A stretch of 51,581 nt of DNA, filler included, from Bilabrum cf. latius (lineage: Eukaryota), in NCBI GenBank assembly GCA_965178125.1. It is 2 parts of 2 records of this genome, joined end to end, with 100 filler letters (N's around TTAATTAATTAA, not from the genome) between each part and the next. Parts side by side here need not be neighbours in the genome. Positions count along the whole stretch, not along the records: positions 1 to 25,822 come from CBCXTV010000037.1; 1 more part is not named here. The stretch is one strand, 5' to 3'. Positions 1,424-22,224 of this stretch are shown here, piece after piece (the stretch's first letter is position 1; every line of letters begins with the position of its first letter). A model generated the notes under the pieces. It had not been told where the DNA came from. It did no database searches and saw only the letters and a program-made list of their open reading frames with translations. The position numbers and the translations under genes were made by a program.

Positions 1424-3025
1424 ATGTCCTCTGCTTCGGTGCCGGATCAGCTCGCACGGATCAGTAAGGAGCTGAAGTGTCTCAGAGACGCGAGACAACG
1501 GGCGCGCAATGGGCTGCGCCATCCGTGGTTGCGCGCCATGGAGGCACAGGTCGCTGAGGTTATTCGTCATCACCCCGGAGGTGGCGAGGCAGCTCTTCGA
1601 ACCTATGTCTCTCGTCAGTTGCAGAGTCGACAGGTTTCCACGCGGACGGCTTCGCAGGAGGAGTTTCAAAGGCAGGTCGATGAGGAGGTCGCGCTCACCA
1701 TGAGGCGCCCAGCTGAGGCGTGGCAGCGAAATCCTCTTCGCTCATGTCATCGAGAGTCCGTGGCACGCGCAGAGGCCTTTCTCGCCGAGGCTTCTGTCGT
1801 TGCTTGGATCGACCATGTGAACGAGCAGCGTGGGTGTGCTCCAACTGGGAACATGGTTTTCGCCATGCTTGCGAGGATGGGCGTTCGCGCGGGGAAGGAC
1901 TCGGCTCGACGGCAGTGGCTCCTGCGCTTCCGTCGTCGTTGGCGGCTTCGGCATGGCCGATTGAAGAAGCAGCCCCCGGTAACACTCGATTACGTCAGAC
2001 TCGCGTGTCGTGTCTTCTATCAGTGGATTGAATTCGCAGAAGCGCGAGTGCCCCCCAACCGCCGCCTCGTCTTTGTGAACTTCGATGAGTCCAGCGTGCC
2101 CTTTGCCTTTCCGGGAATGCGCGGGTACATCGCACCGAGGTCAGGAACGGAGCCCGCTTCGCTTGGTTCGCGCACGGAGCGCCTCGCCTCGAATAGCAAT
2201 CGAGGATCGTACACCTTTCTGGGTTTTATTAGCGACTGCCCGGAAATCCAGCGACGACTCCCGCGTATACTCATCGGGAAGCACACGCGGCTGAGCAAGC
2301 GCTTGATGCGTGGGGCGCCGAACCAAATGGTGGACGGAATGGAAGTCTGGGCCCGAGAGAGCTCGTGGGTGACGCAGTCCCTCATGTTCGACATTCTGCG
2401 TCGGCTTTTCGCTTCTTGGATGGACATTCAGCATGAGATCTATCCAATAGTGATACTTGACTGCGCGCCCCAACACATTTCCACTGAGATTGTGAACTTC
2501 GCACACGGCCTTGGCATGGATCTCGTGTTTATTCCTGGTCGACTCACCTTCTTGCTTCAGCCGTTGGACGTTCTCGTCTTTCAGCTTCTTAAGCGCGACC
2601 TTCGGGAGACGTGGATGCAGGAGCGCTCGCGTCATGAAGCGGGTCATGTCGATGTCTCTTGCCATCTCAGGGTTGTCGCTGAGTGCACGAAGAGAGTGCT
2701 CTCGTCTGGCTCGTGGCAAGGCGCTTTCGATATGACAGGCATTACCAGCGGCAGGCGCCGCTTGCATTCGACCCTACGGCGCTTGTTTGAGTGTGACATG
2801 GAGGACATCTCCAGCGATGCTCCGTCTGTCGACCAGCTCCGCTTCATCAGCAGTCCGCAGCAGCCTCTCCCGCACGATGCGCTCATCAACAGGGCCCCAG
2901 TCGCGTCCGGACACGGGGTCGACGGAGGCGTCCACGGTGGTAACGCTCGCCGCGTGCCTCGTGGCCGCAGACTAAACGGATGGACCCCCCGCGATCGCGC
3001 TCACCCCTCGGCGGCCATGCCGTGA
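1424..3025 (+). CDS. pogo/Tigger-like DDE (DD35D) transposase/integrase
   Basis: CENP-B-like WLLRFRRRW. Catalytic motifs VNFDESS, VILDCAPQH and FIPGRLTFLLQPLDV, with 35 residues between the 2nd and 3rd Asp. Intact 533-aa frame from ATG 1424. Confidence 0.9.
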   Translation: MSSASVPDQLARISKELKCLRDARQRARNGLRHPWLRAMEAQVAEVIRHHPGGGEAALRTYVSRQLQSRQVSTRTASQEEFQRQVDEEVALTMRRPAEAWQRNPLRSCHRESVARAEAFLAEASVVAWIDHVNEQRGCAPTGNMVFAMLARMGVRAGKDSARRQWLLRFRRRWRLRHGRLKKQPPVTLDYVRLACRVFYQWIEFAEARVPPNRRLVFVNFDESSVPFAFPGMRGYIAPRSGTEPASLGSRTERLASNSNRGSYTFLGFISDCPEIQRRLPRILIGKHTRLSKRLMRGAPNQMVDGMEVWARESSWVTQSLMFDILRRLFASWMDIQHEIYPIVILDCAPQHISTEIVNFAHGLGMDLVFIPGRLTFLLQPLDVLVFQLLKRDLRETWMQERSRHEAGHVDVSCHLRVVAECTKRVLSSGSWQGAFDMTGITSGRRRLHSTLRRLFECDMEDISSDAPSVDQLRFISSPQQPLPHDALINRAPVASGHGVDGGVHGGNARRVPRGRRLNGWTPRDRAHPSAAMP

Positions 3026-3039
3026 CCTCGACCACGACC

Positions 3040-4044
3040 ATGTCAGGGGCGAACGCGACTTCGTCAACCTCGAGCACGACCATCCCAGCGGCGAAGGCGG
3101 CTTCCTCGATGGGATCCCTGACCCCGACGAAGCTTCCCCGACCTCGGCCACGTGAACCTGCAGGCGCATTCTTGCCCGATGTGCCCGCGCAGGTGGCGGC
3201 CTGCACGGCGTGGGCGCCACCGTTTCGTCGACCAGACAGCTCAGCCACTCCGGCGACGCGCGAGGCGGCAACGTCCACGTGCATCAATCCGTGGACCGCT
3301 CTCTCCTGGTATCCGACACCACCGCAGCCGACGGACCCCCCTTCCGACAGGCCTCGCGAGGTACCGAACCGGAGCTCCCGGCAGCAGCGCAGGCGTCATG
3401 CTTGGGGCGGCACGTGGGTGTTCGACGACGCCATTACGCTCAGCGATTGCGGGTCGAGGGTGCAGATCGACGCGCCGCAGTCGAAGCTCTTGGCGATGGT
3501 CGTGCCCCGGAAGTCGGGCCAGTGGATTCCTCGTAGGCTGCGCTCGCGTACGATCTGGTATTTGGCTGGGGAGCAGTCGGCCGTGATCACCAACCTCAAG
3601 TGCCAGGCCTGCAGTCGGGTCAAGCACGCGGACAGCTTCAACCCGAAGAGCTTGCGTCGGGCTCAGTACTCGTTGCTGCATTCCCTGTGGCCCGGCTACA
3701 TACGACGTACCGAGCGGTCTATTTGGTGCACGCAGTGTGCGGTGGAGGACCAGTTGATGCAGGGCAACTTTCCGGACGGCTACTGTTTCCGGATCCGCGC
3801 CACACTCGAAATTTGCCATCAAGATCGCGTCGCGGCCAAGCTGTTTGCAGTGCACGACAGTAACGCTCTCTTCGAGCAGATCCCGCTGAGCTCCCGTGCG
3901 GCCATGGACGTGGCGGAGCAGTTGCGCCGATACTGGCAGGATGCCGTGTCCTCAGACGGCCAGAGCAACATCTTCCACAGCGACCACGTTTCGACAGACG
4001 ACGACTCTGAGTTCGCACCGGGCGGACCGGAGAGCGTGCCGTGA
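3040..4044 (+). CDS. Hypothetical Cys-rich zinc-finger protein (Stc1-like CxxC...K...F...CxxC)
   Basis: LKCQACSRVKHADSFNPKSLRR...IWCTQC; low-complexity N-terminus; starts 15 nt after the transposase stop. Confidence 0.6.
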   Translation: MSGANATSSTSSTTIPAAKAASSMGSLTPTKLPRPRPREPAGAFLPDVPAQVAACTAWAPPFRRPDSSATPATREAATSTCINPWTALSWYPTPPQPTDPPSDRPREVPNRSSRQQRRRHAWGGTWVFDDAITLSDCGSRVQIDAPQSKLLAMVVPRKSGQWIPRRLRSRTIWYLAGEQSAVITNLKCQACSRVKHADSFNPKSLRRAQYSLLHSLWPGYIRRTERSIWCTQCAVEDQLMQGNFPDGYCFRIRATLEICHQDRVAAKLFAVHDSNALFEQIPLSSRAAMDVAEQLRRYWQDAVSSDGQSNIFHSDHVSTDDDSEFAPGGPESVP

Positions 4045-4296
4045 GGGACCGCAGCGACAGTAGCGTCGCTTAGGTGAGGAGCGGGTGCCAATGCTCTTTT
4101 GAAAATGGTGTGTCGTACGTACGGCAGGAGCCGTCGGTGGGAGCGGGGCGGATCCTGCGGGAAGTCGTGGAGACTGAGGGCAGAGACTCTCGGGTCGGTC
4201 AGGGTCTCATGTAACGTGCTGTTCACCGCAGAGGTATGTGCGGATCTTGGTGGATCTCTCGAGGACATGGGTGGCATACCGTTGTGCATCCGTTCC

Positions 4297-4430
4297 CCGG
4301 GGGGGGCGGTCGCAGAAGAGTGCACACGAAAACAAGAGGAAAGGAGACCAACCCCCCAAACCCACGTAGTGCGATCCTGGGGGGTACCCTATAAGGTACT
4401 AAGAATCCTTCTCCCGAAAATCGCACTACC
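4297..4430 (+). repeat. Second copy of the candidate origin hairpin (paralog of ~18718-18845), between 55-bp direct repeats
   Basis: gtagtgcgat (4366-4375) and atcgcactac (4420-4429) are conserved. Flanking repeats tcttggtgga...gttccccg lie at 4245-4299 and 4444-4498. Confidence 0.9.
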
Positions 4431-5405
4431 TCGGGCCACAACGTCTTGGTGGATTCCTCGAGGACATGGGTGGCATACCGTTGTGCATCCGTTCCCCGTC
4501 GCTCCCTAACGTCTTCAGTGGCAGGTTCGGAAAAGACACCTCCGTAGGCACGCGACAAGTCCCGGTGAAGCGGGCTCGCACCGCGCTGGGCGGGAGATCG
4601 TGAGCGCTTAGAGGACCGGAGCTCTCGGGCGGGTGCGTGTCTCGACAAACTCCCTCTTGACCACGGGCGGGGAACGTGTAGGGCGGAAGCTAAAGACACC
4701 GTAAGTAGCGGAGGGCTAACATTCCGTCCTTCGGTGAGAGCCAAAAGTTCGAGTCTGCGAGAGACTATTATACGAAGTTCTCCCCTCCTCATACGTGCGC
4801 ATAGCCTCCTCACGCGGTAGCGCGAGCGCGGGACCCGGACCTGTCCCTGATGGGCGTGAATCTGAACCCGGCGTACTCTCCTAGTCTGTCACTTCCACGA
4901 CCTTGTTGTCGCGGAACCACTTGCACGGAGAGGAACCTGTCGTTCAAGCGGGTGCAGCCGGACGCGCAGGTGTAGTGCATCGCCTTGCATATGTGCACGG
5001 CCAAGTAGATGCCGGAACCGTAGAGGTATCACACTTCCCGCGGAGCTTGGGTGGGTCTTTCGCTGCTGTCGTCTGCTCCAGAAGGTTTGCGCCAAAAACC
5101 GGAAAACTTCTAAGACAGAGGTGGGATGCCAGGAGCTCACGGTCCTGCCGGATTGGGGAGGTCCATGCCCACGCGAGCCGGGTACGCGTCCAAATCAACG
5201 CACAGAGCGGGAGCTGACGGCGCCAAGGACGCTCACTGTCAGGCACACACAACGCGGAAACCACAGAATTCGTCATTTCGCGTTCAAAGCCTGCCAACGA
5301 CGTGGTGCTTGGCGAAATGTGGTGGGTGGCGAAGATGTGGTACTTCGCCGTGCCTTTCTCTATGACGGCCAAGCGTGCACTCGCCATCGCGCTCGGACGC
5401 CACAG

Positions 5406-5554
5406 GAAGAGATCCCAGCACGCAGCTCCGCCGCCTCATCCAGGAGTAAGGCGAAGTCGAATCGTGAATAGCGCTTCGCACCTTCACAGAGCCGAGGATC
5501 ACAGATAGGCCCCGCCTCACAGAACCCAGCGCCATAGGGCAGAGCGTGAAGTAC
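5406..5554 (+). pseudogene. Diverged fragment of the 3' end and downstream region of the 17888-18358 gene
   Basis: Aligns with 18296-18445 (gaagagatc.cagcacgcagctccgcc...gggcagagcgt.aagtac). Confidence 0.8.
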
Positions 5555-6558
5555 CTGGCCGCTTGGCTTGGCCGGACCCCCGCCCGCCCTCCGCCGGCAG
5601 CTCCTCCCGTCCGTCCCTATGGAGGCAGATCCGCGTACCCATGCTGCGGCGGGATCCTGACACAATCCGCTCCTCTTAGTGTGTGGCCGTGGGGCATGAG
5701 TGGAGCAGCATCGGGCCCTCACCAGCCGTGGAACGGAAGCAGCTCTCCGTGCGGCAGCTGTGCGATGCACAGACCTCGTCCCAAAGATACGGATCCATTT
5801 TGCCGTCTTCCCGCGCATACTGCATCGCTCTGCAAAACTGCATTGCGCAGTGGATCCCCGAGCGTCGACTGCCAATAGCAGGCGGCCTCGCAAGGCCTTC
5901 ATGGACGCAGGATTTGGGCTTCTTCATCGTAAATTTGGGGTCTGCTCAGCGCGCGAAAATTCCAACGCTTCAAAATGATCCGGACGTCGCGAGAAGGGAA
6001 CTCGTTGCTTGCTCACCTGTGCGGAGGGGTTGGATGCCCGATGTGCTAAAGAGAGGATACTGTCCGTCGGCGTTCTCTCTTCACCTTGTGCGGAAGGGTT
6101 GGGTGCCTGATTTCAGACAGAGAAGGTCTCGTCCGTTGGGAGCGCTTAGGAATACTTCCGGATGGGGCGTCCAGACGCGGTCCAGGACCTCCAGCTCGTC
6201 GGGGTCAATGTCGCCCGCGCCGTCCGTGCCTTTGACGCCCTCTGGATCGATGATGCCCACGATCTTTGTCATCTCGGACGACACACGTCCCAGCTGCTCT
6301 TTGGTAGTGCATTACCTCATTGACCCCGAAGCGTTGAATATTTAATGAAGACCCTTCGGAAGCTGACGAAGTTTGTCAGCTTGTCGGAGCGCAGCCTGGG
6401 TCCTTGTCAACAAACATGGAGGGTTTCGGGGCGGATTTCCAGCGTTCCGCCTTGATATCGAGTGCACCTCGAGGTCGGGATCGAAGCGGGGCGGGCGGTT
6501 CGTCATCCTCTGTGATACGCTTAGGAGGCGCCGACTTGATGCCCACCTTGTCCCCCAA

Positions 6559-6957
6559 TCACTCCAGACGTAACTGGGGAACTCTACCCGTCGTGGGCCG
6601 GGTACGCCTCCGAATCCCACGCGAGCCGTTCCCCACGGCGCACCGATAAGCGCCGCTGCAAGCGTACCAAGAGGGGCGTACCAAGAGGTGCTTCCTTCGC
6701 TCGGCAGTGTGGCACTTCAAGCAGTAGAATGTGCCACTCCCAGCACGTAGGTGGAGTTTGCGAGCTGCCGGCCGACATGCTCGTGTGGTGACCTCCGGCG
6801 CACCGATAAGTGCCGCTGCAAGCGCACCAATACTACTTCGCTTGGGAGCGTGGCACTTTAAGCAATGCAGTGCGCCGGTTTTCGTGCACGCCCAGTCGCG
6901 CGGACGCCGCAGGTGGCTTGGCGGTAGGATAGAATTAGTGGCGGGTCGGTTTTGCAT
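6559..6957 (-). pseudogene. Degenerate ORF with RanBP2-like zinc-finger remnants
   Basis: RPRDWAC...HCLKCHAPK and a second FYCLKCHTA unit; the internal duplication is visible at the nucleotide level (gtggcactt.aagca). Confidence 0.35.
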
Positions 6958-7130
6958 GTCTTCCCTCTCCTCTTGATATGGTACACAAAGGCAAGAGCCT
7001 GACGATGCAGACGGAACTCCTGGATTTCACCGCCACATTCCTAGTCAAGACAGCCCTCGACTAAACAGACGCCGAGTTATCTTGAGCAGCATCCCACGAC
7101 GCAGTGATGTGGACGGCAAGGGTGATGCCA

Positions 7131-9899
7131 TGCTTTCCGGGCCTCCCATGTGACCGCTTTTTGCGTACCGAAACACTTTCCGAGGTCGACGCCCCGGCGG
7201 AGCACGCCGGCGCGGCGGCAAGCGTCGATGTTGCGGGCGGCCCAGCCATGAGGTACATGATCAAGTACGCGGAAAGCACGCAGAGCGTCGTCAATCCGTT
7301 CGTGAGCCGCGAGTTCCAAAAGGTCTTCGAGCACATCCGCCCGGAAAGCACGCAGAGCATCGTCAATCCGTTCGTGAGCCGCGAGTTCCAGAAGGTCTTC
7401 GAGCACATCCCCCCGGAAAGCACGCAGAGCATCGTCAATCCGTTCGTGAGCCGCGAATTCCAAAAGGTCTTCGAGCACATCCCCCGGATGATGTCGAGCA
7501 TGCGGACGCCCTGCTCCGGATGATGTCGGCCATGCGGACGCTCTTCCCAGACCTTGCGCGGCAGCGGGACGAAAATGGAGCTCTCCCTGCACCGCAAGCA
7601 CGCCGGAAACCTGGTGCACTTCCACGTATGCATGACGGACTCCGAGAGGTCGCATCGTTGTCGCGTGGCGGAGGATTTCATTTGGGCCGGCAGCAGGCCG
7701 AATGTCGTGTACGGCTTTTAGGTACCGAACCCGAGCTCCCGGCAGCAGCGCAGGCGGCATGCTTGGGGCGGCACGTGGATCTTCGACGACGCCATTACGC
7801 TAAGCGATTGCGGGTCGAGGGTGCAGATCGGCGCGCCGCAGTCGAAGCTCTTGGCGATGGTCGTGCCCCGGAAGTCGGGCCAGGGCATTCTCCGAGTCTC
7901 TTTGCCGATGATGTCTGAGGAGAAACCGTCCGAGAGCATTGCTGTTTCCTTGGGAGACGGCCGCAATCTTCGTGGGCGTCAAGGCGCCGGTAATATGGGA
8001 AACGAGGGCGGCATGTTGGCGCGCGAGGTCGACGCCCCGGCGGAGCACGCCGGCGCGGCGGCAAGCGTCGATGTTGCGGGCGGCCCAGCCATGAGGCACA
8101 TGATCAAGTACGCGGAAAGCACGCAGAGCGTTGTCAATCCGTTCGTGAGCCGCGAGTTCCAAAAGGTCTTCGAGCACATCCCCCCGGAAAGCACGCAGAG
8201 CGTCGTCAATCCGTTCGTGAGCCGCGAGTTCCAGAAGGTCTTCGAGCACATCCCCCCGGAAAGCACGCAGAGCATCGTCAATCCGTTCGTGAGCCGCGAG
8301 TTCCAAAAGGTCTTCGAGCACATCCCCCGGATGATGTCGAGCATGCGGACGCCCTGCTCCGGATGATGTCGGCCATGCGGACGCTCTTCCCAGACCTTGC
8401 GCGGCAGCGGGACGAAAATGGAGCTCTCCCTGCACCGCAAGCACGCCGGAAACCTGGTGCACTTCCACGTATGCATGACGGACTCCGAGAGGTCGCATCG
8501 TTGTCGCGTGGCGGAGGATTTCATTTGGGCCGGCAGCAGGCCGAATGTCGTGTACGACGTATGGTCAGACGCAGCCGCTTGGAAGGCGGGTGGCGGCGTG
8601 GCAGACGGGAAGGATGTCGGAACCTGGGGTTCATGGAAGACGCCTGCGAAGTCGTCATGGGGGGAGCCGTACGTGCCGTGGCAGGTCGCGCCGGAGCCGG
8701 CGGAGGAGGCGACATGGACTTGCAACGCGTGCCAGGGCCTAAGCCCCGGTCAGAGTACTTCAAGAAGTGGAAGGACTGGATCCAACCAGTTTGCCGGGTG
8801 TGTTGCGACAAGTTCGACAACGCGACGCCGTGGTGGGTGAGGTGCAAGAACTGCAAAAACGAGTATCCGGCGTACCGATTTCCCCAGAACCGCCGGAAGA
8901 AGGAGAACCTGCGCTATTTCTTCCCTGAGGACTGGTGCGCGAAGTGCCTGGTTGCGCGTGGCTGGAGTCTCCATGATGTCCGTTCCTCTGCGGGTGAAGC
9001 GAAGCGTTGGGTGCCAAAAGCTGGCGCGAATACCGGTGACGGCGACAACGACGCTCGTGCTCCCGCACGCGACGAGCCTCCTGCAGGAGGCGCCGCCTCC
9101 TGCAGCAACGCCGTGCGTCAGAGTCCTTCGCGTGACGAGGCCTTGGATGACATCAACCGGGCCATGGAGCTTCTCCGGAATGCGGAGAAATTCATCTCCG
9201 CGATGCCATCGTGCATGCAGTGTGCGGTGCAGGACCAGTTGATGCAGGGCATCGTCAAAGACCAGGCCCTCTTGGATATCTTCTCCGGCAAGATAACGGA
9301 CTGGATCAAATACCATCCGGCCACTCTTGGGGCGATCCAATCCCATCGAAACGCATGGCTGTGGGCTGAGAACCACACGCCGACGGAATGGCTCATGGTT
9401 GTCGAGGATGATATCGAACCTCGCGAAGCATGCGTGGATCGGCTACTCGTAGTTCTTCACGCCATCGCGAAAACCCCAAGGTGACGCAGATGGCCATGTT
9501 AGCGGGGTCAGAAGCACCGAGAATGGTCAGCCTCCAGCGCGGAAACTCCACCTCCATCCACAACTGCGAGCGCCTCTTGGACGTGCGGACCTATCCGGCG
9601 CACTGGGTAGACAACACATTTGTGGTCCCCTACCACGTCGGCATGGGCCTAAAGTGGTATCTCATCAGCCCGGAGGGGAGGAAGGCGCTCCTGAAGATGC
9701 GGATCCCGAACCGAAGCTTCGAACGCTGCGTCTGGCGCCGCCTCTTCGACACGTTCCACGCCGGCGAAACCTCGAGTTTTGGCATCAAGATCGTGTCGCG
9801 GCCAGGCTGTACGACGGCGGCAAGAAGACGGAGAAGGAGGATGCTCACGGTATCGCCCTGATCATCTGCACGACTTCGTGGGGCTCCATGACGTAACGG
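7131..9899 (+). pseudogene. Scrambled mosaic of fragments of the element's own genes
   Basis: Consecutive blocks match ~23567, 24153, 16465, 20545, 20855, 3359, 24013, 24377, 3726, 14655, 15478, 3805, 24305 and 21659. It includes a 3x72-bp tandem and an 843-bp-offset duplication (7181-7712 vs 8024-8555). Confidence 0.9.
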
Positions 9900-9945
9900 C
9901 GAGCGAGAACATTGACTGGTGGCGTGGCTGGAGGATCTCGGGAAC

Positions 9946-10250
9946 ACACGGCGGGCGAGCCGTTTTTCAAAAGGAGCACGGGTCCTTCGGGACGCCATTT
10001 CACTTACGGCGGGCGAGCCGTTTTCCGAATGGTGCGGGGGTCCTACTGATGCACACGGCGATCGCTGGTTCACTCACGGCGGACACACGGCGGGCGAGCC
10101 GTTTTTCAAAAGGAGCACGGGTCCTTCGGGACGCCATTTCACTTACGGCGGGCGAGCCGTTTTCCGAATGGTGCGGGGGTCCTACTGATGCACACGGCGA
10201 TCGCTGGTTCACTCACGGCGGGCGAGCCGTTTTCCGAATGGTGCGGAGTC
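9946..10250. repeat. ~139-bp tandem repeat containing five acggcgggcgagccgtttt hairpin motifs
   Basis: Motif near 9948, 10006, 10087, 10145 and 10215; acggc/gccgt stem with a 6-nt loop followed by a T-run. Confidence 0.9.
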
Positions 10251-10388
10251 CTCCAGATGACCACGGTGATGGGTGGCAGCATGTCATAGGCGCGCCGTCG
10301 GAAGCTTCCCCTTCGAGTGCTGCCTAAAACTGAGAAACCTGGAGATCCTAGCATCGTATGGAGGCAAGAGGTAACACCTTGGGGTCCG

Positions 10389-11557
10389 TTCTCCGCTTCA
10401 ATTCCTGTCCCAAATCCGATTCCCATTTCGAGACCGAAAAAGGTGACCCGGAAAACGACGGTACTTATTTCTGAACCGTTTTCCGGACGCTTTCCGGGCC
10501 TCCCATGTGACCGCTTTTTGCGTACCGAAACACGTTCCGCGCGTGAGGAGCAGATGCGGGGATTTCGCCAAAAATGGCCGATCCGCACAAGGAATTTAAG
10601 TTGCGGCGACACAGCTCGGACCCCGGCTTTTTTTTGGCTGTTTCGGGGCCCCAAGAGGGCTCCCGGCCCCAAAAAGGGCAAAACGCGAGGTTGTGGTGGA
10701 AAAAATGGGCCCCAAGGAGCCCCCAAACGACGCAAAACGCCACGTTGTTGTGGATTTTAGAGCCCCTAAATCGCCCAAAAAAGACGCAAAACGCCACGTG
10801 GTGGTGGATTTTAGAGCCCCTAAATCGCCAAAAAAGACGCAAAACGCCACGTTGTAGTGGATTTTAGAGCCCCTAAATCGCCCAAAAAAGACGCAAAACG
10901 CCACGTTGTGGTGTTTTTTTTGAGCGTTTTCGGGGGGCTCGGAAGGGGACCCCCCCAGGATTTGGCCAAAAATGGCCGATCCACACAAGGACTTTAAGTT
11001 GCGGCGACACAGTTCGGGCCCCGGTTTGTTTTTGCGGTTTGGGGGCCCCGAGAGGGCTCCCGGCCCCAAAAAGGGCAAAACGCGAGGTTGTGGTGGAAAA
11101 AATGGGCCCCAGGCAGCCCCCAAACGACGCAAAACGCCACGTTGTGGTGGATTTTAGAGCCCCTAAATCGCCCAAAAAAGACGCAAAACGCCACGTTGTG
11201 GTGGATTTTAGAGCCCCTAAATCGCCCCAAAGAGACGCAAAACGCCACGTTGTAGTGGATTTTAAAGCCCCTAAACCGCCCTAAAAAGACGCAAAACGCC
11301 ACGTTGTGGTGTTTTTTTTTGAGCGTTTTGGGGGGGCCCGGAAGGGGACCCCCCCAGATTTGGCCCAAAATGGCCGATCCACACAAGGAATTTAAGTTGC
11401 GGCGACACAGTTCGGGCCCCGGGGTTTGTTTTGCTGTTTGGGGGCCCCAAGAGGGCTCCCGGGAGGCCCTAGAGTGGCCCTTCTCCGCTTCAATTCCTGT
11501 CCCAAATCCGATTCCCATTTCGAGACCGAAAAAGGTGACCCGGAAAACGACGGTACT
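10389..11557. repeat. Nested tandem repeat block (~399-bp units containing ~52-bp subunits) bounded by 77-bp direct repeats
   Basis: Units start at aaaatggccgatcc (~10570, ~10968, partial ~11367). Subunit gacgcaaaacgccacgttgtggtggattttagagcccctaaatcgcccaaaaaa. Boundary repeats at 10389-10465 and 11481-11557. Confidence 0.95.
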
Positions 11558-14451
11558 CTCCGTCACTCCATCTGGCGGCGAAAATTGCCTCAGTTTCCGG
11601 TCCCCGATTCCGGGCCCAAGGACCCCCGAAATTCCCGATTCCGCGCAGTGCCGAAAGCTCGACATAAACCACAAACACGACACACAACACAACACGATAG
11701 CGCCTCCCCACGCGCGGGACTGGGTCCTTCCGCTCGCTGCATGTGAGCTGCAGTGTGTTCTTGCCGGGAATGTCACTGGAAGTCGCGCTGCAGTCTGCTC
11801 AGGGCGCCTTATGACCATGAAGGCGTCTCAGCACCCGCGACGGCAAGAGGGGGCACGCACGACGTTGCGAAGCACCCGCCCTGGGTGAAGAAACTGCGTA
11901 TCCACAGGAGTCACGTTCAGTTGCGCGAGAATTGGAAAGGCGGGGTAACTGGTGCAGAGGAGCTTGTTCGCAGCGCGGCTTCCACCAGCGCCGCTGACGA
12001 TAAGATGCATCGGTCTCGGTACATGAGTCGGCACGGTGTTGCGTGATTGACTTCACGATGCGGGAGTGTGCAGCCTTCCGCAGCGGGAGAATTGTATCTC
12101 CCCACGACCGCCGAAAAAAAAAAAGGCTATGCTGGACTCGTTCCAGGGAAGGCTATGCGATGAGTATCTCTAGGCGCTTTCCGGAAGACCCACCCACTAC
12201 ACGCTGGTCAGCCCTCCCAAGCGGGAGTGAACCGCGGAGCCGCGGGCCCGTGAGCGCTGCTGCTACGATCATTTCTGCCCGTTTGACTCTCGCCCACTCT
12301 TGCCGTGACCAAAGACGCGCAGATCCTTATGACGCATGACACCTCGTCGAGGTGTCGAGACTGCCTCACATTCCCGTTACGGAGACCCACAGCACTGCGA
12401 CAACGAAATCGGTCACGAAGAGAGCAAGAGGCCGCGCACCTGAGCATCACAAAAACCCCGAGAGACATAAACAACACCGTACCGTGAAGTCCCTGCGACG
12501 AGGGGATGCTAAGCGGCTCCCACGGCGGCTCCTCTGCGGGAGAAGCTGCCGCAGACCTCGAGATGGGATGCACATGATTGCGAAGATTGCGGAACTCGTC
12601 CGAAGCCGGTCGCACGAGGGTCACAGCGAATGGAGGCATATCTTTGAAATAGAGTCTGCGTGCAAAGCAGCATTCCAAACGATCGTCCGCATTCTTCCGA
12701 GCAAATCCTTGGGAGCACACATCCTGCGGACGACATCTCTTTTCTATCCACCCCAGCGTACTCCCCGCGCACACTTCTCGCGAATGATTGAGAATTCTGT
12801 GCGGCACATGTAATATCAGGCTACCATGATACGCGGAATGGCGTGCTATTGCTCGCACGTTCGTGCGCCCCCTTCCGAATGCGCTTACCACATCACTATG
12901 TTCGTCGGCAACCGTATACACCGTAGGGGTCTTCCCTCCGACACCAAGCGTACACGACTGGCCGTAATAGCGCAGCGTAGATGTTTCGGACGTCGCCCAG
13001 GACAAGTGTCGACGCCCGGTTCGTCACGATCACTACGTGTGCACTTCACTCACCGCCCTCCAGCCGCTAGACTTCTTTTGGAACGCGACATCCTACGACG
13101 CGCTATGACACGTAGCCGTAAACCGCAGACGGCCTCGCGTTCACTGCTTGCAGCGCAAGTGCGTGAACAAGAACCGCCCGCGTGGCACACCTTCGCAGGC
13201 GCGGAAGACAAAAAGTTCCTTCTAAGCTTGTATTCGGGTCCGAAAGCCAAATTCCACTTCGGGGTCGAGAAGGGCGACCCGGGAAATCACCGTACGCTCT
13301 GTGAATCCATTTCCCGGGGAAAGTCCCCGAGTTCCCGCTACCCGGTCCCAGGCCCAGCGACCCAGGAAAGTTCCCGTCCCCCCGCATGCGGAAACCTCCC
13401 ACGAAGCACGCCCACCTCACGCTTCACACGCAAAAGTCCAGGAGTCAAATCCATTCCGGACCCAGCAGTTCACCCCCCGTGACGATTGGGAAAGGCTCTT
13501 GCACACACCTTCTCGTCCGAGCAGTCTATGGAGCACACGCCTGTCTTCGTTGCCTTTTCCGGCCAAAAATGCAGGGAGTTCGAAGGGGAAGTAGCAAACG
13601 CGGAAGACCGCTTTCGAAACGCAGGTGCTCAGGGAAAAACAACCAGAGCGTCCCTGATCCTCGGCAGAGCCGTCCAGGAGGGACGGGCACGGACGGGCAT
13701 CGCAGATCTTGCAGCGCCACCATTCGCCGGGATGGGCGACCGGACGAGGGCGACCACAAGTACGTAGCGTGCGACGTCCGTCAGTCGCCATGTTGCGCTC
13801 ATTCGCTTTCGCGGCACGACTTCCAGGGCCGGCCTTACTCACTCCTCGGAGTCCGCGTGTGGATTCTCCCCTGCGCACGATCTGCCGCTCTAGATGCTAC
13901 ACAAAGATCCCGCTCGGATGACCCCCTCTGTGCATTCTGCAAGATTTTACGCGCCTCCATTCAATGCGCGAAGCATGCACCGCAGCAGTCTGAGTCCGGT
14001 GACCACCTTCAATAGCGTGGGACAAATTCCGTCCGCGATGTGCATTCGGGCATGCTCCCCTTTCCGAGTCTCTGTGACCCGTAGTGCGTCCGCGGCCAAC
14101 GACTCAGGACTCCACGATGGTACGCACGAGTTGCATTCCTTGCACGAAGCGTGCGGAGAGAAAGCGATGCTCAGACATCGAGGCGCTTGGAGGGTCTGCA
14201 CACGACATGCTTCGAGAGGCCATGCAAACATGCGAAACCAGAACTGAGGTTCCTCATCGTTCCTGCTGTCGAGCGCTCAATTGGGGCATCGGATCAGGAC
14301 GAAGCTCGCGAAGAGAGGGCGCGGGTGTCCCCATCCAAAAATCCGCCGCCTTCAAGGCTCATGTTCCCGGATCCTGCATTCGCGAGTTTCGGGAGCAGAA
14401 GTGCAAGATCGCCGCTGGACACACAGCGCATGCCATTTCCCGTCTCTGGAG

Positions 14452-17013
14452 ATGTCGGGCTTCCAGGCGCAATTCGGACACCATCGCCAGGACCTCGGGA
14501 AGATGACATGTCTGCTGATCTGCAGGGAAGAGTCCCGCTTCGAGGAGTGGCGACAAAAAAAAGGGGCGCGAGAACTCCACGAGCACATGGGAGCGGTCCT
14601 TCGGCTCCCCAATCCAGTGTTTCCGCAGACCGACAGGGACCCAGATGGACGCGACATCGTCAAAGACCAGGCCCTCTTGGATATCTTCTCCGGCAAGATA
14701 ACGGACTGGAGCAAATACAATCCGGCCACTGTTGGGGCGATCCAATCCCATCGAAACGCATGGCTGTGGGCTGAGAACCACACGCCGACGGAATGGCTCA
14801 TGGTTGTCGAAGATGATATCGAACCTCGCGAAGCATGCGTGGATCGGCTACTCGTAGTTCTTCACGCCATCGCGAAAAACCCCAAGGTGACGCAGATGGC
14901 CATGTTAGCGGGGTCAGAAGCACCGAGAATGGTCACCCTCCAGCGCGAAAACTCCACCTCCATCCACAATTGCGAGCGCCTCTTGGACGTGCGGACCTAT
15001 CCGGCGCACTGGGTAGACAACACATTTGTGGTCCCCTACCACGTCGGCATGGGCCTAAAGTGGTATCTCATCAGCCCGGAGGGGAGGAAGGCGCTCCTGA
15101 AGATGCGGATCCCGAACCGAAGCTTCGAACGCTGCGTCTGGCGCCGCCTCTTCGACACGTTCCAAGGGCCGGTATGGAAGTGGGGAGATTGCCTCCGCAT
15201 GACATCTGTGCTGGCAGCCAGCCCGGTCCTCGCATCGACTCCCGAAAGCATGGACACGGAGTGGGGGGGCTCGGGACGACGAAGTGCGGATGCAGGGCAC
15301 AGTATGAAACCGTACATAATGATCGACCCGAGTGACGACTGGACTCTTGGCGAGCGATTAAACACATTGTCCGTCGTGATGTCCGTGTGCGCGGCCCTGA
15401 GTTGGGGGGTTGTCCTCGTCTGGGAAAAAACAGAGCGCGTGCCCATCTCCTACGAAGACTTGTGCGGTGTTCACGAGCACGCCGGCGAAACCAACACGTT
15501 CGTCCACCTCCTCCAGGACAAACGCGGCGGGTCGTATTCGTACTTCCTGAGGTACGGAGACATCCGCATCCACGTGGTGCAGCCGATGATGTGCATCCCC
15601 ACCCTCGACAGAATGCTCGACATGGTAGCCATGAAGAGGCCCAAGATGAACACCCTGCCTCCCTTGAAATGGCAGACCGCTCGATGGATCCAAGTCAAGC
15701 AGAAGTGGATCGATAAACTCCACACGGAGATGCCGGGGGCCGAGCTGCCCTCATGGCTGGAGTGGCCACCCTCAACCCACGCGCTTGTCCTCTGCGACGA
15801 CAGGGACTTGGCGGCGCATTGCCTCGAGGGGAGATGCCAAGAGGAGCAGCAGGAGTGGATGAACGGCGGGAAGGACAACAGCATCCAGTACTACATCCTT
15901 GAGGCAAAGCAGGCGCTGCAGAACGAGTTGGAAGACATCCTAAAGGGGGACAGCAGCTCGCGCCTCGTCGTGATCCGCATGACAACCAAACCGCTGGGAC
16001 AGGTCTGGGTGGACATGATGAAGCACCTCACGAAGCAGTTCAGGGAGCGCATCATAACGCCAACGTTCCTCCTCCCGAAAATGATCCCCAAAAGGAGGCA
16101 CGACGAGAAGAACCCGAGTGATGATTGGATTACTTGGGGAGCATCCTTGGCGAAAACCGTGGGCCTCCTCACGCTCATACCTCCGATGCAAGTGCACTAT
16201 CCCATCATGAGCTGGACCGTGGCCTGGAACCACTTCATGTTTAAGGGCAGGACTGCCACGGACACCGTGATCCCAGACGTCATCCGAACTCTGTACGCTC
16301 CGCACAAGAGCAACAGGAAGCAGCTCCTCAAGAACGGCCCGCTGTGCCAGACGAGGCGCGCCGTGCTGGACTCGCCCGCACTGCGGGACATTGCGAACAA
16401 CTACTCAAGGGCCAAGGACAAGACCTATAACCTCTTGAGTTATTCCAAATGGTTTGCCGAGGAAGCCATGTGGCACATGATCAAGTACGCGGAAAGCACG
16501 CAGTGCATCGTCGACCCGTTCGTGAGCCGCCAGTGCCAAAAGGTCTTCGAGCACATCCCCTCGGACGACATCGGCCATGCGGACGCCCGGCTCCGGTACA
16601 ACCTTCAGGATGCCGACGACCGAGGTTACCGCTTCAACGCGGGGCATCTCTACACCGCGGTGCAGGGCATCAAAACGGTGAACATCGCATACAACAAGTG
16701 GCTCACCGAGCAGGCACAGAGTCATTCCGAATGGAGCTGGGGCAAAACGTTCATCAAGCTTGTGATCAACCAGTGGCGGCAGCAGCAGGGCAGTGAGCCG
16801 TATGACGTGGACGAGGAGGAGTACGTGAGCCTTCCGCGGACCTTCCACGGGAATTCGTTGAAGCTCGCGAGGAGCGTAAGCCACAAGGACACGAGATCCT
16901 GCTCCAGATCGTCCTCATCCTATTCCAGGTCGCCCTCCACCAACAGGACTGAGGCACAGCCTTCGAAGAGAGCGCGCCTGACCCCGGCACCCGGCGTAAA
17001 GCACGAGCCCTGA
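14452..17013 (+). CDS. Large glycosyltransferase: GT25-like N-terminal domain plus probable fucosyltransferase-like (GT-B) domain
   Basis: GT25-type VGAIQSHRNAW...WLMVVEDDI. A second motif TLGERLNTLSVVMSVCAALSWGVVLVW...YEDL resembles the GLGNRL...W...DLF N-terminus of fucosyltransferase-like proteins. Open 853-aa frame from the first ATG. Confidence 0.7.
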   Translation: MSGFQAQFGHHRQDLGKMTCLLICREESRFEEWRQKKGARELHEHMGAVLRLPNPVFPQTDRDPDGRDIVKDQALLDIFSGKITDWSKYNPATVGAIQSHRNAWLWAENHTPTEWLMVVEDDIEPREACVDRLLVVLHAIAKNPKVTQMAMLAGSEAPRMVTLQRENSTSIHNCERLLDVRTYPAHWVDNTFVVPYHVGMGLKWYLISPEGRKALLKMRIPNRSFERCVWRRLFDTFQGPVWKWGDCLRMTSVLAASPVLASTPESMDTEWGGSGRRSADAGHSMKPYIMIDPSDDWTLGERLNTLSVVMSVCAALSWGVVLVWEKTERVPISYEDLCGVHEHAGETNTFVHLLQDKRGGSYSYFLRYGDIRIHVVQPMMCIPTLDRMLDMVAMKRPKMNTLPPLKWQTARWIQVKQKWIDKLHTEMPGAELPSWLEWPPSTHALVLCDDRDLAAHCLEGRCQEEQQEWMNGGKDNSIQYYILEAKQALQNELEDILKGDSSSRLVVIRMTTKPLGQVWVDMMKHLTKQFRERIITPTFLLPKMIPKRRHDEKNPSDDWITWGASLAKTVGLLTLIPPMQVHYPIMSWTVAWNHFMFKGRTATDTVIPDVIRTLYAPHKSNRKQLLKNGPLCQTRRAVLDSPALRDIANNYSRAKDKTYNLLSYSKWFAEEAMWHMIKYAESTQCIVDPFVSRQCQKVFEHIPSDDIGHADARLRYNLQDADDRGYRFNAGHLYTAVQGIKTVNIAYNKWLTEQAQSHSEWSWGKTFIKLVINQWRQQQGSEPYDVDEEEYVSLPRTFHGNSLKLARSVSHKDTRSCSRSSSSYSRSPSTNRTEAQPSKRARLTPAPGVKHEP

Positions 17014-17887: not shown

Positions 17888-18358
17888 ATGGCGAGCGACG
17901 CAGAACCGGAGGACGCAATGCGGCTCGACTCCCCTAGAGATGCGGATGCAGCGGCGCCACCCGAAGCGACGGAGGCAGGATCACAGAAACCAGATCATGC
18001 GCAGCAGTTCTTCGAGGAGCCCTGCCCGAAAGACGGACACATGGAAGCGCTAGAGAAGACCGCCAAGACGGACGAACCTGGCGACACACCCTTGTTCGTC
18101 GACAAGTGGACGGCAGCGATCACACGCCTTACCGAGGAGCGCAAGGCTCTCAAGCTCGAGCAGCGGGCTAAAACGAAGGCCATCCGCAAAACCATCCGGC
18201 AGAAAAGGCGCACCATGAAGAACGCCAAAAAACTCACAGACGACGAGCTCGCCCAAATCGTGCTAGACAGGAAGATCTTGCAGTTGGTGCAAAAAGAAGA
18301 GATCGCAGCACGCAGCTCCGCCAACTCCTCAACGAGCCAGGCGAAGTCGACCTTGTGA
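17888..18358 (+). CDS. Small protein (156 aa): acidic N-terminus, basic coiled-coil C-terminus
   Basis: ITRLTEERKALKLEQRAKTKAIRKTIRQKRRTMKNAKKLTDDELAQIVL; G/C-ending codons; directly upstream of the origin/Rep region. Confidence 0.7.
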   Translation: MASDAEPEDAMRLDSPRDADAAAPPEATEAGSQKPDHAQQFFEEPCPKDGHMEALEKTAKTDEPGDTPLFVDKWTAAITRLTEERKALKLEQRAKTKAIRKTIRQKRRTMKNAKKLTDDELAQIVLDRKILQLVQKEEIAARSSANSSTSQAKSTL

Positions 18359-18780
18359 GAAGCGCTTCCCGTGTTCAGAGAACCGAGGATTACAGATAGA
18401 CCCCGCGTCACAGAAGCCATCGCAAGAGGGCAGAGCGTCAAGTACAGCGCAGTCTTGACGGACACAGATAGCCCGAGCAGCACAAAGCAGCGGATGCGGC
18501 TGCCCAGCGGAGTCGCGCACTCGGACAGCATACACGGGACGTGCTGGCAGAAATCACTCAGTCCGCGAGCACCGTCGTCAAGAGCACGGGAGGGGCAGAC
18601 TCGACATGCACAACTTTGAAAAACGGGAGGGGCACGAAAGGAAGACAAATTTGGCATTAATCCTTGATTACCCCCGCCCCCCCGTAGAATCAGAGCGAGG
18701 AGATATGCTCGGAAGGTCCGGGGGGCAGTCGCAGAAAAGTGCACGCGAAAATAAGAGGAAAGGGGACCCCCCAAACCCAC

Positions 18781-19025
18781 GTAGTGCGATCCTGGGTGGT
18801 ACCCTCTAAGGTACTAAGAATCCTTCCCCCGAAAATCGCACTACATCGGTCCCTGGCGTCGGGGAAAGCGGAAAAAAGGGGAGCACTACCGTGAAAAAAT
18901 CCTGCATTTTACAGGAAAATCGGAGCACTACGTGTCAAAAACTGGGGGTTTTTGAGGTTTTTTTTCCAGAAAAACGGCATTTTTTTATGTAAAAACCGCG
19001 CGAAACGAGCACTACCGAGCACTAC
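18781..19025. promoter_or_regulatory. Candidate rolling-circle origin: inverted repeat plus GCACTAC iterons
   Basis: 10-bp perfect IR 18781-18790/18835-18844 encloses gtacc-ctctaa-ggtac. gagcactac occurs at 18881, 18923, 19007 and 19017 within A/T runs, ~500 nt upstream of Rep. Confidence 0.5.
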
Positions 19026-19534: not shown

Positions 19535-21820
19535 ATGTCGGCTCCGTTCAAGGGCGAAACGATGAGTTTGTCTGTTGCCGAGTCGCTGAAGTCCCGAGTC
19601 GCATCCTGCTCCTGGGATCCCGCGTGGGTTTCCGCGAGCTGCGTGCCGTGCGATGGCCTCCCCACAAGCCAGGAGTCAGAAGCGTCCACGACGGCGACCT
19701 CTGCTTTGTTAGGGGTGTCCGAGGCGTCCCCAACGTGCTCGTGTGGCCTCGGTGTCTCCAATTCGGTGGCTGCAGCGCGCGCGGCCGCTGTCCCGAGTTT
19801 TGGCTTTGACGATGCGGAGAACGACTTCGACGCCAGTCTCGACATGATTGAGGCCTCATGCGAGGTCGCATGCGAGGCAGAATGCGAGGGCGATCCGGGA
19901 GCCTGCTTGTTGTCCCACGGCAAGTCGAGCGGTCAGTGGCAGATCGGCGTAGTGGGTGAACGAGTCCTTTATGAGGGCCTCAGCGTTGAGGGCGACATTC
20001 CTGGCCGCGTTGCTGCCTCCGAAGCGCTCGCCGCGGGTGTCATCAATTTGGAACCCCCGTCAGAGGAAGTACTTTTGCCGGTGCAGCTTCTGCGGAGTAG
20101 TCAAGGTTACCGTGGGGTTCTGCCCATCGAGGATTCTGCGCCCGATGCGAGGGGGCGACCGCAGATGCTCATGCTTCCCGATTTCGTACCCCCCGTGAAG
20201 AGGCGGCGTCTTCGGCAGAAGTGCGACCCTGCTGAGGGCGATGCAGCACCGAGTCTTGCGGCTCATCTCGGACCTCCGCCCGCGGCTCGTGCCGCGGCCG
20301 GAGCGTCTGGGCCGCAGCGCTCGACTGGAAGGCCTTCGACTCGTCCTATTGATAGTGTCATCTATCGTCTCCTGCGGGTTTTCCCTGACGATTTCAAGTT
20401 GGCGTTTCCGGCGTCGGTGTCACACCAGCGGAAGCGGTGCCTCATCAGGGAGGCGCTTCGCAATGTACCCGGTGACCGCATGTGCATCTTGAAAGACTGG
20501 GCTGCGGGGGCGGAGGACACTCCTTGCCAGCTTCGTTTCGAGGAGCTCTTCCCGGAGCTTGCGCGGCAGCGGGACGAAGTTGTGAGGAATCCGGGATCGC
20601 ATTCAGTGCCCGTGGGCGAGATTGTGCCTGCGTCCGACAAGAACACGAGGCGGGGAAGGGCCGTGATGCTTACCTTTCACGGTCGCTGGGGTGTCGAAAA
20701 GGAGCCTGTGCGCGACATCATGTCGGCATCCGTGGCAAGGGGCGTCCTGAGGCGATTGGTTCTCGCGTCTCCGTTCTATGTGGAGCTTTGGGCCACCTTC
20801 AAGGCATGGGCGCAGGACATCGCGCGGCGGATGATGTGGCCTCAGCTGTCCATGAAAATGGAGCTCTCCCTGCACCGCAAGCACGCCGCAAACTTGGTGC
20901 ACTTCCACGTATGCATGACGGATTCCGAGAAGTCGCATCGTTGTCGCGTGGCGGAGGATTTCATGTGGGCCGGCAGCAGGCCGAATGTCGTCTACGGCTC
21001 CGGGCGGTCAGCGAAAGCGCAGGAACGTGGCGCGTCGGAGTTACACTATTATTGTCAAGCTCCCAAAGTCGGTGCGCTGCTTTGCGCCACGAACTACCGA
21101 GCCGGACGCGATTTCGTCGTCAATGGTAAGTTCGTGCACGCGTTGTTCGCACGCTTCAAAATGGATCCGGACGTCGCGAGAAGGGAACTCGTGGCGTATC
21201 GGTGTCGGGACGCCGAGAACTTAGTGCGCGCCATCGACTTCCACATACAGAATGCCGCGGAGAGGAGAGAGGTGTGCGCGCAGGCCGCGGTGCACGTAGT
21301 GACGAAGCTCCGCCCCTTTAAGGTGGTGCCCGAAGTCGAGAAGTGGCGCGAGAGCTATCGTCAGGAGTGGTTCGCGCACATGCGCTTCAAGTTCCTTGTC
21401 TTGGTGGGGGACTCCCGGTTCGGGAAGACAGTGTACGCGCGGAATCTCTTCGGGAGCGAAAGGACTCTTGTTGTGAACTGTCAGGGCAGTGTGGAACCTC
21501 CGCTCCGTGGCTTCGATCGAAGTCGGCATGTGGCCATTGTGTTCGACGAGGCAAATGCCCTGTGGGTCGTCAACAACAAACAGGTCTTTCAGGCTGGCCT
21601 TGACCCCTCCCTGCTCGGCCAGAGCAAGACGAACAGCCTCGCATACTCTGTGTGGCTCCACGGTATCGCCCTGATCATCTGCACGAATTCGTGGGGCTCT
21701 GACGTGACGGAGTCGGTGGACCGCGAGTGGCTTGACAACAACTGTACGAAAGTGGAGGTGAAAGATCGGCTCTACTTCGACGAGGACTTGTTGTCTCTCA
21801 CGGATGTGCAGAAGAGCTGA
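19535..21820 (+). CDS. rep: CRESS-DNA-virus-like replication initiator (HUH endonuclease + SF3 helicase) with long N-terminal extension
   Basis: Motif I AVMLTFH, motif II VHFHVCM, motif III HYYCQAPK. Walker A LVGDSRFGKT, Walker B IVFDE, motif C IICTN. C-terminal WLDNNCTKVEV as in gemini/genomovirus Reps. Confidence 0.92.
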   Translation: MSAPFKGETMSLSVAESLKSRVASCSWDPAWVSASCVPCDGLPTSQESEASTTATSALLGVSEASPTCSCGLGVSNSVAAARAAAVPSFGFDDAENDFDASLDMIEASCEVACEAECEGDPGACLLSHGKSSGQWQIGVVGERVLYEGLSVEGDIPGRVAASEALAAGVINLEPPSEEVLLPVQLLRSSQGYRGVLPIEDSAPDARGRPQMLMLPDFVPPVKRRRLRQKCDPAEGDAAPSLAAHLGPPPAARAAAGASGPQRSTGRPSTRPIDSVIYRLLRVFPDDFKLAFPASVSHQRKRCLIREALRNVPGDRMCILKDWAAGAEDTPCQLRFEELFPELARQRDEVVRNPGSHSVPVGEIVPASDKNTRRGRAVMLTFHGRWGVEKEPVRDIMSASVARGVLRRLVLASPFYVELWATFKAWAQDIARRMMWPQLSMKMELSLHRKHAANLVHFHVCMTDSEKSHRCRVAEDFMWAGSRPNVVYGSGRSAKAQERGASELHYYCQAPKVGALLCATNYRAGRDFVVNGKFVHALFARFKMDPDVARRELVAYRCRDAENLVRAIDFHIQNAAERREVCAQAAVHVVTKLRPFKVVPEVEKWRESYRQEWFAHMRFKFLVLVGDSRFGKTVYARNLFGSERTLVVNCQGSVEPPLRGFDRSRHVAIVFDEANALWVVNNKQVFQAGLDPSLLGQSKTNSLAYSVWLHGIALIICTNSWGSDVTESVDREWLDNNCTKVEVKDRLYFDEDLLSLTDVQKS

Positions 21821-22224
21821 CGCCGGCCGCTGAGGTTTTCAGTCCGGTTCACACGAGCGCCGGAGCCGCAGCGGCAGCCGCTTCGGTGCTCCTGAAGGTC
21901 TAATGTCCTCAATGCGTTTCGTGTGCAAAAAGGATGTGATTTCTACATGGGGGCATTCCGCAAGTTTCATGTGGTCCGTCGCGTTCGTCCGGGGGAGTGC
22001 TTGCCTAGTATTGGGAGCTTGCCTGACACACACACACGTGGCACCCAGCCTGATGGGTTGCAAGTGTGTGTGTGTCTCCGCAGTGCCGCGGTTGGGACCC
22101 GGCGGGTCGTTTGCTTTTACGTCGCCGCGTCGCGCGCCGACGAGACATTTCTTGGTCTCAGAAGCCTCTGCTTCCGGTAGGCGCGCCGTGTACGCTCGCG
22201 GGCCGAAGGTGGGTGCGTTGCTTG

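Follow-up and report, generated by a model that had tools for sequence, protein, structure and literature searches.

How does a tandemly repeated element come to carry, among its genes, a long stretch pieced together from those same genes? The question is raised by positions 7131-9899 of the DNA analysed here (the window: a stretch of 51,581 nt from Bilabrum cf. latius, assembly GCA_965178125.1, made of two contig parts joined through filler). Window 1-25822 (+), which is contig C80 (CBCXTV010000037.1), spans exactly one unit of an element repeated head to tail; the unit's content, all on the + strand, comprises a pogo DDE_1 transposase, open reading frame (ORF) 3, a glycosyltransferase-like (GT) gene, a Rep, a 'ZnF' gene and three small ORFs. 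Our analysis establishes that the patchwork is real and that its variants descend from one ancestor; as its probable origin we propose stepwise templated insertion in a tolerated accretion zone of the Rep+pogo array, followed by unequal exchange and conversion.

The block map was drawn by self-BLAST and jumping alignment. The rest of the unit covers 2713 of the 2769 patchwork bases at E<=1e-3, in sense orientation, and the same coverage was 0 in 20/20 shuffles and in 5/5 control stretches of the window's other contig. An earlier interpretation made from the DNA letters (the sequence-only reading) had given an ordered list of donors, and all of them were recovered in that order. It had also placed every piece on the + strand and noted substitutions relative to the donors; both hold, the sole minus-strand match being a palindrome inside the ZnF piece and piece-to-donor identities running from 88 to 98.4%. 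The patchwork itself (7131-9899, +), the youngest and best-resolved part of a longer variable zone, is laid out as follows:

7131-7180 (+): non-coding module 23566-23614, or equally its copy at 10489
7181-7243 (+): ZnF 24153-24215
7244-7539 (+): GT 16464-16596, a 72-bp unit three times plus a partial repeat
7540-7570 (+): Rep 20545-20575, left part of a deleted Rep scaffold
7571-7716 (+): Rep 20854-20999 with the HUH motif, left part of the deleted Rep scaffold
7717/20-7883 (+): ORF3 from 3359 (piece about 3356-3522)
7884-8086 (+): ZnF 24013-24215
8024-8556 (+): local 533-bp duplication of 7181-7713, 99% identity
8087-8553 (+): GT and Rep pieces a second time
8554-9208 (+): ZnF 24377-25038, nested in the ORF3 piece
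9209-9249 (+): ORF3 from 3724
9250-9756 (+): GT 14655-15162
9757-9770 (+): GT 15478, 14 bp
9771-9810 (+): ORF3 from 3805
9811-9845 (+): ZnF 24305-24339
9846-9899 (+): Rep 21659-21710 with motif C, right end of the Rep scaffold

Jumping-alignment assignments at 7107-7129 and 9900-9935 were rejected as noise. Every piece behind the earlier count of more than a dozen was found, but about 8-11 independent donor tracts remain once deletions and the duplication are merged. The stretch 7717-8086 (ORF3 plus ZnF) is a shortened form of 3356-3631 > 24005, and 9209-9810 is ORF3 3724-3844 interrupted by an internally deleted GT 14655-15491 that replaces 40 bases; the GT '15478' piece is thus the tail of a single 14655-15492 piece after deletion. 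The joins 3529>24013 and 20993>24377 are likewise later deletions. Three window joins are later deletions by comparison among copies, being present in 8, 8 and 4 of the 23 variants described below. The 533-bp duplication is missing in several variants, for example C46:7k and C47, and the copy number of the 72-bp GT unit differs among them, while the module>ZnF join within 7131-7243 is common to 21/23.

Could the joins have been made in the library or during assembly? The library types of the runs are not on record, no single contig in the four runs in which join bridging was examined (X1, X5, X6 and X8; the small-share runs X14-X18 were unused) spans the whole stretch, and the element is confined to small contigs. 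However, contigs of X5, X6 and X8 cross 8382/83, 9810/11, 9845/46 and 9899/9900 with 0 other letters, as those of X5 and X6 also do at 9208/09, and the three runs differ at fixed alleles (e.g. 7036, 7606, 8909 and 9078) and so do not represent one library. Part of the stretch is present in 18 of the 24 runs listed (14 studies), and half or more of it in 10. The low or absent cover of bins 7328-7541 in X6 and X8 proves nothing; in X1 the summed contig depth over 6900-10100 is about 3-7.6 x 10^5, which exceeds the depth in the other three roughly a thousandfold or more and is not a copy number. Because contigs from three other studies bridge several of the joins, and 29 copies in 23 variants have joins in common that carry their own inherited substitutions, the patchwork is confirmed as real. 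The chimera that the sequence-only reading had named as its own refutation, through multiple displacement amplification or assembly, is largely refuted, and we regard an artefact as extremely improbable.

A comparison among copies had been recommended by the sequence-only reading. The entire 7131-9899 stretch recurs at 100% at 5 places, with rearranged forms elsewhere. Reading 29 copies between both anchors (a set that leaves out six loci without the full patchwork between them, including a recombinant on C48) gave 23 distinct variants of 2.1-4.3 kb from anchor to anchor. Of their joins, 14 are common to 19-23 of the 23 variants, and five patch-specific Rep substitutions are present in 23/23, including the diverged copy on C63. 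The variants therefore descend from one ancestor. They have also recombined with their donors: one copy, C48:6k, passes from the patch into the real GT gene. In the C47 variant it is the patch, not the donor, that matches an outgroup (P0194, 65%) at 4/6 informative ORF3 sites, which marks the pieces as old snapshots of the genes.

The pieces lie nested one inside another. Three from Rep (20545, 20854 and 21659) stand in gene order and bracket most of the others; ORF3 3356-3844 lies inside the Rep pieces and is in turn interrupted by ZnF 24005-25038 and GT 14655-15491, each of which replaces a short ORF3 stretch. C46:32k and C47 have ORF3 3726-3844 unbroken; elsewhere GT splits it. In C63 the same Rep scaffold is filled differently: Rep 21018 is followed by a ZnF copy and then by Rep 21033-21063>21670, and that ZnF copy in turn encloses ORF3 3157-4009 at an overlap of about 12 nt. 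A protein predicted on a 17,177-base ENA contig, P0109, has the Rep patch alleles and runs from the HUH piece straight into the motif-C piece with no insert; it has no full-length match in the Bilabrum assembly (G000). Another chimeric ORF from a 17,177-base ENA contig, P0195, links a stretch resembling window ~900-1370 with a piece of ORF3 that bears patch alleles, and suggests further patchwork forms elsewhere.

These nested states bear directly on whether the patchwork was made at once. A single catastrophic event of the kind seen in chromoanasynthesis or a defective-interfering genome, whether a series of template switches or the collapse of about six tandem units, would agree with most joins being common to nearly all variants and with enriched microhomology, and sense is preserved whenever a jump within a tandem array goes forward. 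It is hard to reconcile, however, with one Rep scaffold filled two ways (C63 versus the rest), with the insert-free P0109 and with piece divergence that spans 82-100% across the zone, and we consider it very unlikely. The sequence-only reading had invoked repeated template switching; the modest enrichment of microhomology agrees with this, but a single serial run does not fit pieces that are nested and variants that differ by single inserts.

We favour instead the stepwise origin. A partly deleted second copy of Rep would have lodged first in a zone of about 7 kb, and stretches of ORF3, ZnF and GT would have been copied into it, and into each other, in separate later events. Each insertion would have replaced tens to hundreds of bases, with the scaffold resuming downstream, as expected of out-and-back template switching or templated gap repair with 0-4 nt of microhomology, the templates being neighbouring units or perhaps strands displaced by Rep. 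Unequal recombination between units would then have duplicated and deleted blocks, and conversion by intact genes may have refreshed some pieces. Some of the apparent donors are products of later deletions, duplications and conversion. The zone, which is inherited and changes fast, would thus be junk that the array tolerates and takes along, left behind by error-prone copying, and judging from its sequence it is probably without function.

The joins themselves speak to the nature of the templates. Microhomology of at least 2 nt is present at 15/36 distinct joins (17% expected, p 5e-4), and 16/36 are blunt. Of the short matches reported earlier, three (gaa, acg and ca) hold exactly. The gtg match comes just after a mismatch, and although both donors contain gctc, it is offset by one base between them. 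The sequence-only reading had allowed for element mRNAs as templates, and capture of mRNA pieces by reverse transcription with template switching would suit the sense orientation and the location of 10/11 donor tracts inside ORFs (p 2e-4; 7/8 at scaffold level, p 1e-3); LTR (long terminal repeat) retroelements are, moreover, active on element DNA, as a copia-like insertion in C63 attests. Yet 0/13 core joins are splice-like, no spliced-leader relic was found in the window, and no poly(A) was seen at the window's joins, so that a processed retrocopy is not supported. In addition, non-coding pieces were also copied (an origin-like hairpin, a short-unit deletion join), and out-and-back nesting fits DNA repair better. 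The donor genes look intronless, so that intron loss cannot serve as a test of RNA templates. The same-sense orientation is weak evidence on mechanism, since all annotated ORFs lie on the + strand and a head-to-tail array allows joins in one sense only; no mRNA is needed to produce it. Altogether, mRNA capture seems quite unlikely, and the templates were more probably DNA.

Several observations weigh against stepwise DNA-level insertion. The bias of donors towards ORFs is not predicted by template switching on DNA, and the reading frame is kept across 6/9 core inter-gene joins (post hoc p 0.04), an excess that the later joins (8/23 in frame) do not have. No shared motif resembling a Rep nick site was found by eye at the 13 core breakpoints. 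Conversion at a later stage, instead of ancestry, could account for the contiguous ORF3 state, and P0109 is known only as a protein whose assembly could be chimeric. Finally, the backbone is kept in 29/29 two-anchor copies and in at least 3 other studies; recent common origin explains this, although selection could too.

If selection acted on the patchwork, one place to look for it is in the chimeric ORF that the sequence-only reading had proposed as an exon-shuffling intermediate. The ORF does exist:

8363-9484 (+): chimeric ORF, 373 aa; Rep 338-348, an out-of-frame stretch, ZnF 274-430, ORF3 250-266 and GT 69-145

A nursery of chimeric proteins under selection would be in keeping with the in-frame core joins, and in the C47 variant ZnF, ORF3, ZnF and Rep pieces follow one another with their native frames kept. 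The substitution pattern looks neutral, however: 24/89 changes relative to the donor frames in the window's pieces are synonymous, where 21.4 +/- 3.8 are expected (p 0.29). The longest ORF ranges from 333 to 718 aa among variants, with differing make-up and with frameshifts and stops that differ among copies, and the chimera has no homolog beyond its donor among 8000 candidates scored. The chimeric ORF is thus probably not functional, and selection for exon shuffling appears very improbable.

A second way in which selection could maintain the zone is through small RNAs. In many copies the patchwork adjoins a near-perfect hairpin (27 places in the fetched loci, in 5 haplotypes, some loci overlapping; e.g. 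L017:5630-5900 on C44), with arms of ~97-99 bp, 0-5 mismatches, a 3-nt GGA loop and a folding energy of -231.6 kcal/mol (z -24), folded from a GT homolog (83%). The zone might accordingly be kept as a silencing or decoy locus, in which antisense or hairpin transcripts of gene pieces from the element and its relatives yield small RNAs that limit the element or exclude its relatives. Besides the hairpin, such a role would be compatible with the 1080/2749 patch 21-mers that match the rest of the unit exactly, with the bias of donors to ORFs, and with an excess of synonymous changes in older pieces elsewhere (39/92 against 25 expected, p 7e-4), as if these came from working relatives or long ago. 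On the other hand, the window's own unit lacks the full hairpin and has one arm remnant at 6745-6798; the hairpin agrees exactly with the GT of this unit over at most 16 nt; the 5 haplotypes carry different arm mismatches, with no compensatory changes; and the patch pieces are in sense, so that ordinary read-through gives no double-stranded RNA. We therefore hold a silencing locus to be unlikely. The same low likelihood attaches to the broader idea that an undescribed class of capsid-less, self-replicating dinoflagellate elements keeps a variable archive of gene pieces, both its own and those of relatives, and uses it together with the hairpin as a small-RNA source for copy-number control or exclusion of relatives.

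The patchwork belongs to a variable zone of ~7 kb (about 4200-11560), whose older pieces are 82-90% identical to their donors and include non-coding donors:

4245-7130: older part of the variable zone, containing the next four features
4301-4437: copy of the origin-like hairpin 18720-18852, 90%
5406-5554: piece of ORF 17888, 82%
5965-6008: Rep remnant
6745-6798: remnant of one hairpin arm
9944-11557 (+): right part of the variable zone, with a 139-bp duplication, a copy of the short-unit join and a repeat array

Within the right part, 10386-10559 equals 11478-11557 plus 23543-23636, a short-unit deletion join copied into the variable zone of full units, and 10560-11462 holds arrayed repeats of ~50 bp and ~400 bp whose cores read GCCACGTTGT. 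Nearby patches of other copies include inverted pieces, and on C63 (L053:9000-10000 and the start of L064) there is a local inversion of window-equivalent 11711-12069. Short units, of which 8 were seen in the arrays by tiling, are about 14-16 kb long; they lack GT, the candidate origin and Rep (join window 11557 > 23543) and keep the candidate-origin copy at 4301-4437. A scripted count of 20 was rejected, as it mistook patch copies of the join for real short units. As regards the sequence-only reading's comparison with defective-interfering genomes, these Rep-less short units are a defective-like feature at the level of whole units; the patchwork itself sits in full units.

The donors and their neighbours within the unit are:

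1424-3025 (+): pogo-type DDE_1 transposase, 533 aa; Pfam PF03184 E 2e-11, 44.1 bits (cut-off 22)
2980-4044 (+): ORF3 donor gene, no assigned function; one 65% relative (P0194), and Pfam Stc1 only at E 0.05
14452-17013 (+): GT donor gene, 853 aa; nearest Atlas clusters GT25/GT11, score 0.92
17888-18358 (+): 156-aa ORF; weak homologs adjoin pogo in sister elements (E 9e-6 to 0.04, local ORF set)
18775-19025: candidate replication origin upstream of Rep, at the AT-skew flip; imperfect hairpin with 6 GCACTAC repeats as candidate iterons
19535-21820 (+): CRESS-like Rep, 761 aa; HUH and Tyr motifs and a superfamily 3 (SF3) helicase
23752-25044 (+): donor gene 'ZnF', Cys-rich, 430 aa, no Pfam match; copied more often than any other donor region

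Across 16 aligned sequences the Rep invariants are H97/H99, Y147, GxSxxGKT (Walker A), DE (Walker B) and N359 (motif C), and its Atlas neighbours include Gemini_AL1/RNA_helicase clusters (0.97 to Gemini_AL1). Sequence searches of Pfam, PHROG and PDB gave no match to it, and no relative was found in viral_contigs; relatives at E<=0.001 number 1362 at the 50% cluster level. The GT gene matches a PHROG glucosyltransferase at E 0.0012 and no Pfam family, its nearest Atlas clusters being GT25/GT11 proteins of Nucleocytoviricota, which is a lead only. GCACTAC occurs 11 times in the window against 3.1 expected. A hairpin also lies downstream of Rep (22025-22076) and a palindrome within the ZnF gene (24908-24938); at window 24427 most other copies carry a ZnF allele ~39 bp longer, as does P0196. 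No capsid match was obtained for the unit's main ORFs in Pfam or PHROGs (at sequence level, with no fold search), none was recognised among the ORFs common to sister elements, and the Pfam matches of 24-aa repeat ORFs fall below the cut-off.

Long units of the element measure ~26-27.5 kb. On C44, a contig of 361 kb, base 25822 leads straight back into base 1 again and again, in a head-to-tail array (about 191 of the 361 kb were read). Self-BLAST at E<=1e-3 detected no long-range inverted repeat in the unit, and 1-405 versus 25323-25706 was rejected as a terminal repeat: 25245-25822 and 1-405 form a local duplication (87-94%) that spans the arbitrary unit junction and includes the start of ORF 325-849. 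An exact Rep 25-mer has 46 matches on 22 small contigs, all from C44 upward, and 0 in C1-C43, where a Rep protein search likewise has no match among the 86 of 191 candidates that were scored. In C63 (L064) a 2.6-kb copia-like insertion, with 442-bp LTRs and a 5-bp duplication, lies at window-equivalent 17562. The start of C63 (L063:1-1700) holds 1.1 kb of repetitive DNA 93% like C50, a 13-bp satellite and a patchwork-like join into a truncated Rep; among the stretches fetched this is the sole join of the element to other DNA, and none of them contains a clean element-host junction. Since named relatives of Rep are only from Symbiodinium, and given the LTR insertion and the join to repetitive DNA, the element likely resides in a dinoflagellate nucleus. 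It may belong to a different organism than the large contigs of the assembly. Three stretches read from large contigs (C1, C20 and C43; L065-L067) have nothing in common with the element, and a tract of TTAGGG-type repeats on C43 suggests that two organisms may be mixed in the assembly. The remainder of the window (25924-51581) lies off C80, beyond the filler; by eye, it contains a DNA methylase-like ORF (33488-35457) and one like the RNase H end of copia (48578-49654). Such ORFs are typical of dinoflagellate repeats.

The element is not alone. All 8 of the other tandem-array contigs examined hold a Rep (~26-33% identical) and a pogo-like gene (22-30%), and C57 adds one more; sister units are 11-21 kb where the period was read. 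The sister tandem elements are on C50, C52, C55, C57, C58, C59, C61, C73 and C89, with C102 having a Rep match only. PF03184 is above cut-off also in C59, L060 and L061. In 2/7 metagenome loci (L060 and L061) DDE_1 lies beside Rep on one strand, the other five being contigs of 1.9-5.0 kb. Dispersed self-repeat zones are found in the long units of C55 (31 matches) and C58 (131), C61 having 12 older matches and compact units 2-5. No published description of a Rep+pogo element or of such a patchwork zone was found in a search that most subscription papers and supplements lay outside. The carrier is probably an undescribed class of element, and may be a new one.

How does this carrier compare with known systems? 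The Rep carries, as sequence motifs, the HUH endonuclease and SF3 helicase that define Cressdnaviricota, and like Cressdnaviricota Reps and pCRESS plasmids it has HUH, Tyr, Walker A/B and motif C. It differs from these in its 600-760-aa Reps, 11-27-kb units, DDE transposase partner and lack of a detected capsid; rather than a small circular genome we see a 25.8-kb unit, arrays of up to 361 kb and an LTR insertion. The transposase is of the pogo/Tigger DDE_1 type. A Helitron was rejected on the SF3-type motifs and the absence of a Pfam helicase match. Helitrons capture gene fragments. Both Helitrons (Y2 Rep plus SF1B helicase) and Replitrons (Y1 Rep, no helicase), as characterised in the available part of PMC10288648, are eukaryotic elements with a Rep HUH endonuclease, as is ours, but here the Rep has SF3 motifs, on which a Replitron was rejected, and the fragments come from the element itself. 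Polintons and transpovirons also pair a replicase, pPolB, with a DDE enzyme, and tandem integration with accretion and deletion is discussed in the same source (10.64898/2026.10.13.758929, in the portion accessible to us); unlike them, the present element has no detected capsid, pPolB or terminal inverted repeat. The carrier is the more important find: it would be a replicase-plus-transposase element built on a CRESS-type Rep, represented by several families within a single assembly and also present in marine metagenomes, and possibly a sizeable overlooked share of dinoflagellate repetitive DNA.

The patchwork, for its part, is a readable, multi-strain record of a replicon accreting and erasing its own pieces, and its preserved intermediates make out-and-back templated insertion directly testable. 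It consists, as defective-interfering DNAs do, of rearranged pieces of the parent replicon. Defective DNAs of geminiviruses and parvoviruses contain deletions, duplications, insertions and some inversions, for which template switching at short repeats has been proposed (PMC3187698, from the text available); like them, we have a Rep-encoding replicon with rearrangements of its own sequence and Rep-less short units that keep an origin-like hairpin copy, whereas here the insert is stable in full 26-kb units, is inherited across strains and accompanies no detected capsid. The 'jumbled' plastid minicircles of Heterocapsa triquetra (PMC1679814, as far as the consulted sections go) are likewise multi-copy dinoflagellate DNA in which truncated pieces of several genes are joined, but they are separate small plastid circles of organelle genes, while our zone sits in a large Rep+transposase element that is probably nuclear, as it takes LTR-retroelement insertions. 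Microhomology-mediated break-induced replication and chromoanasynthesis, finally, produce chains of templated insertions at microhomologies as single somatic events in human cells (PMC13065848, in the part seen); the template switching and microhomology-joined pieces are alike, and the build-up here is stepwise and heritable. The patchwork is best described as a variant of defective or jumbled DNA, set apart by being an inherited insert in full units.

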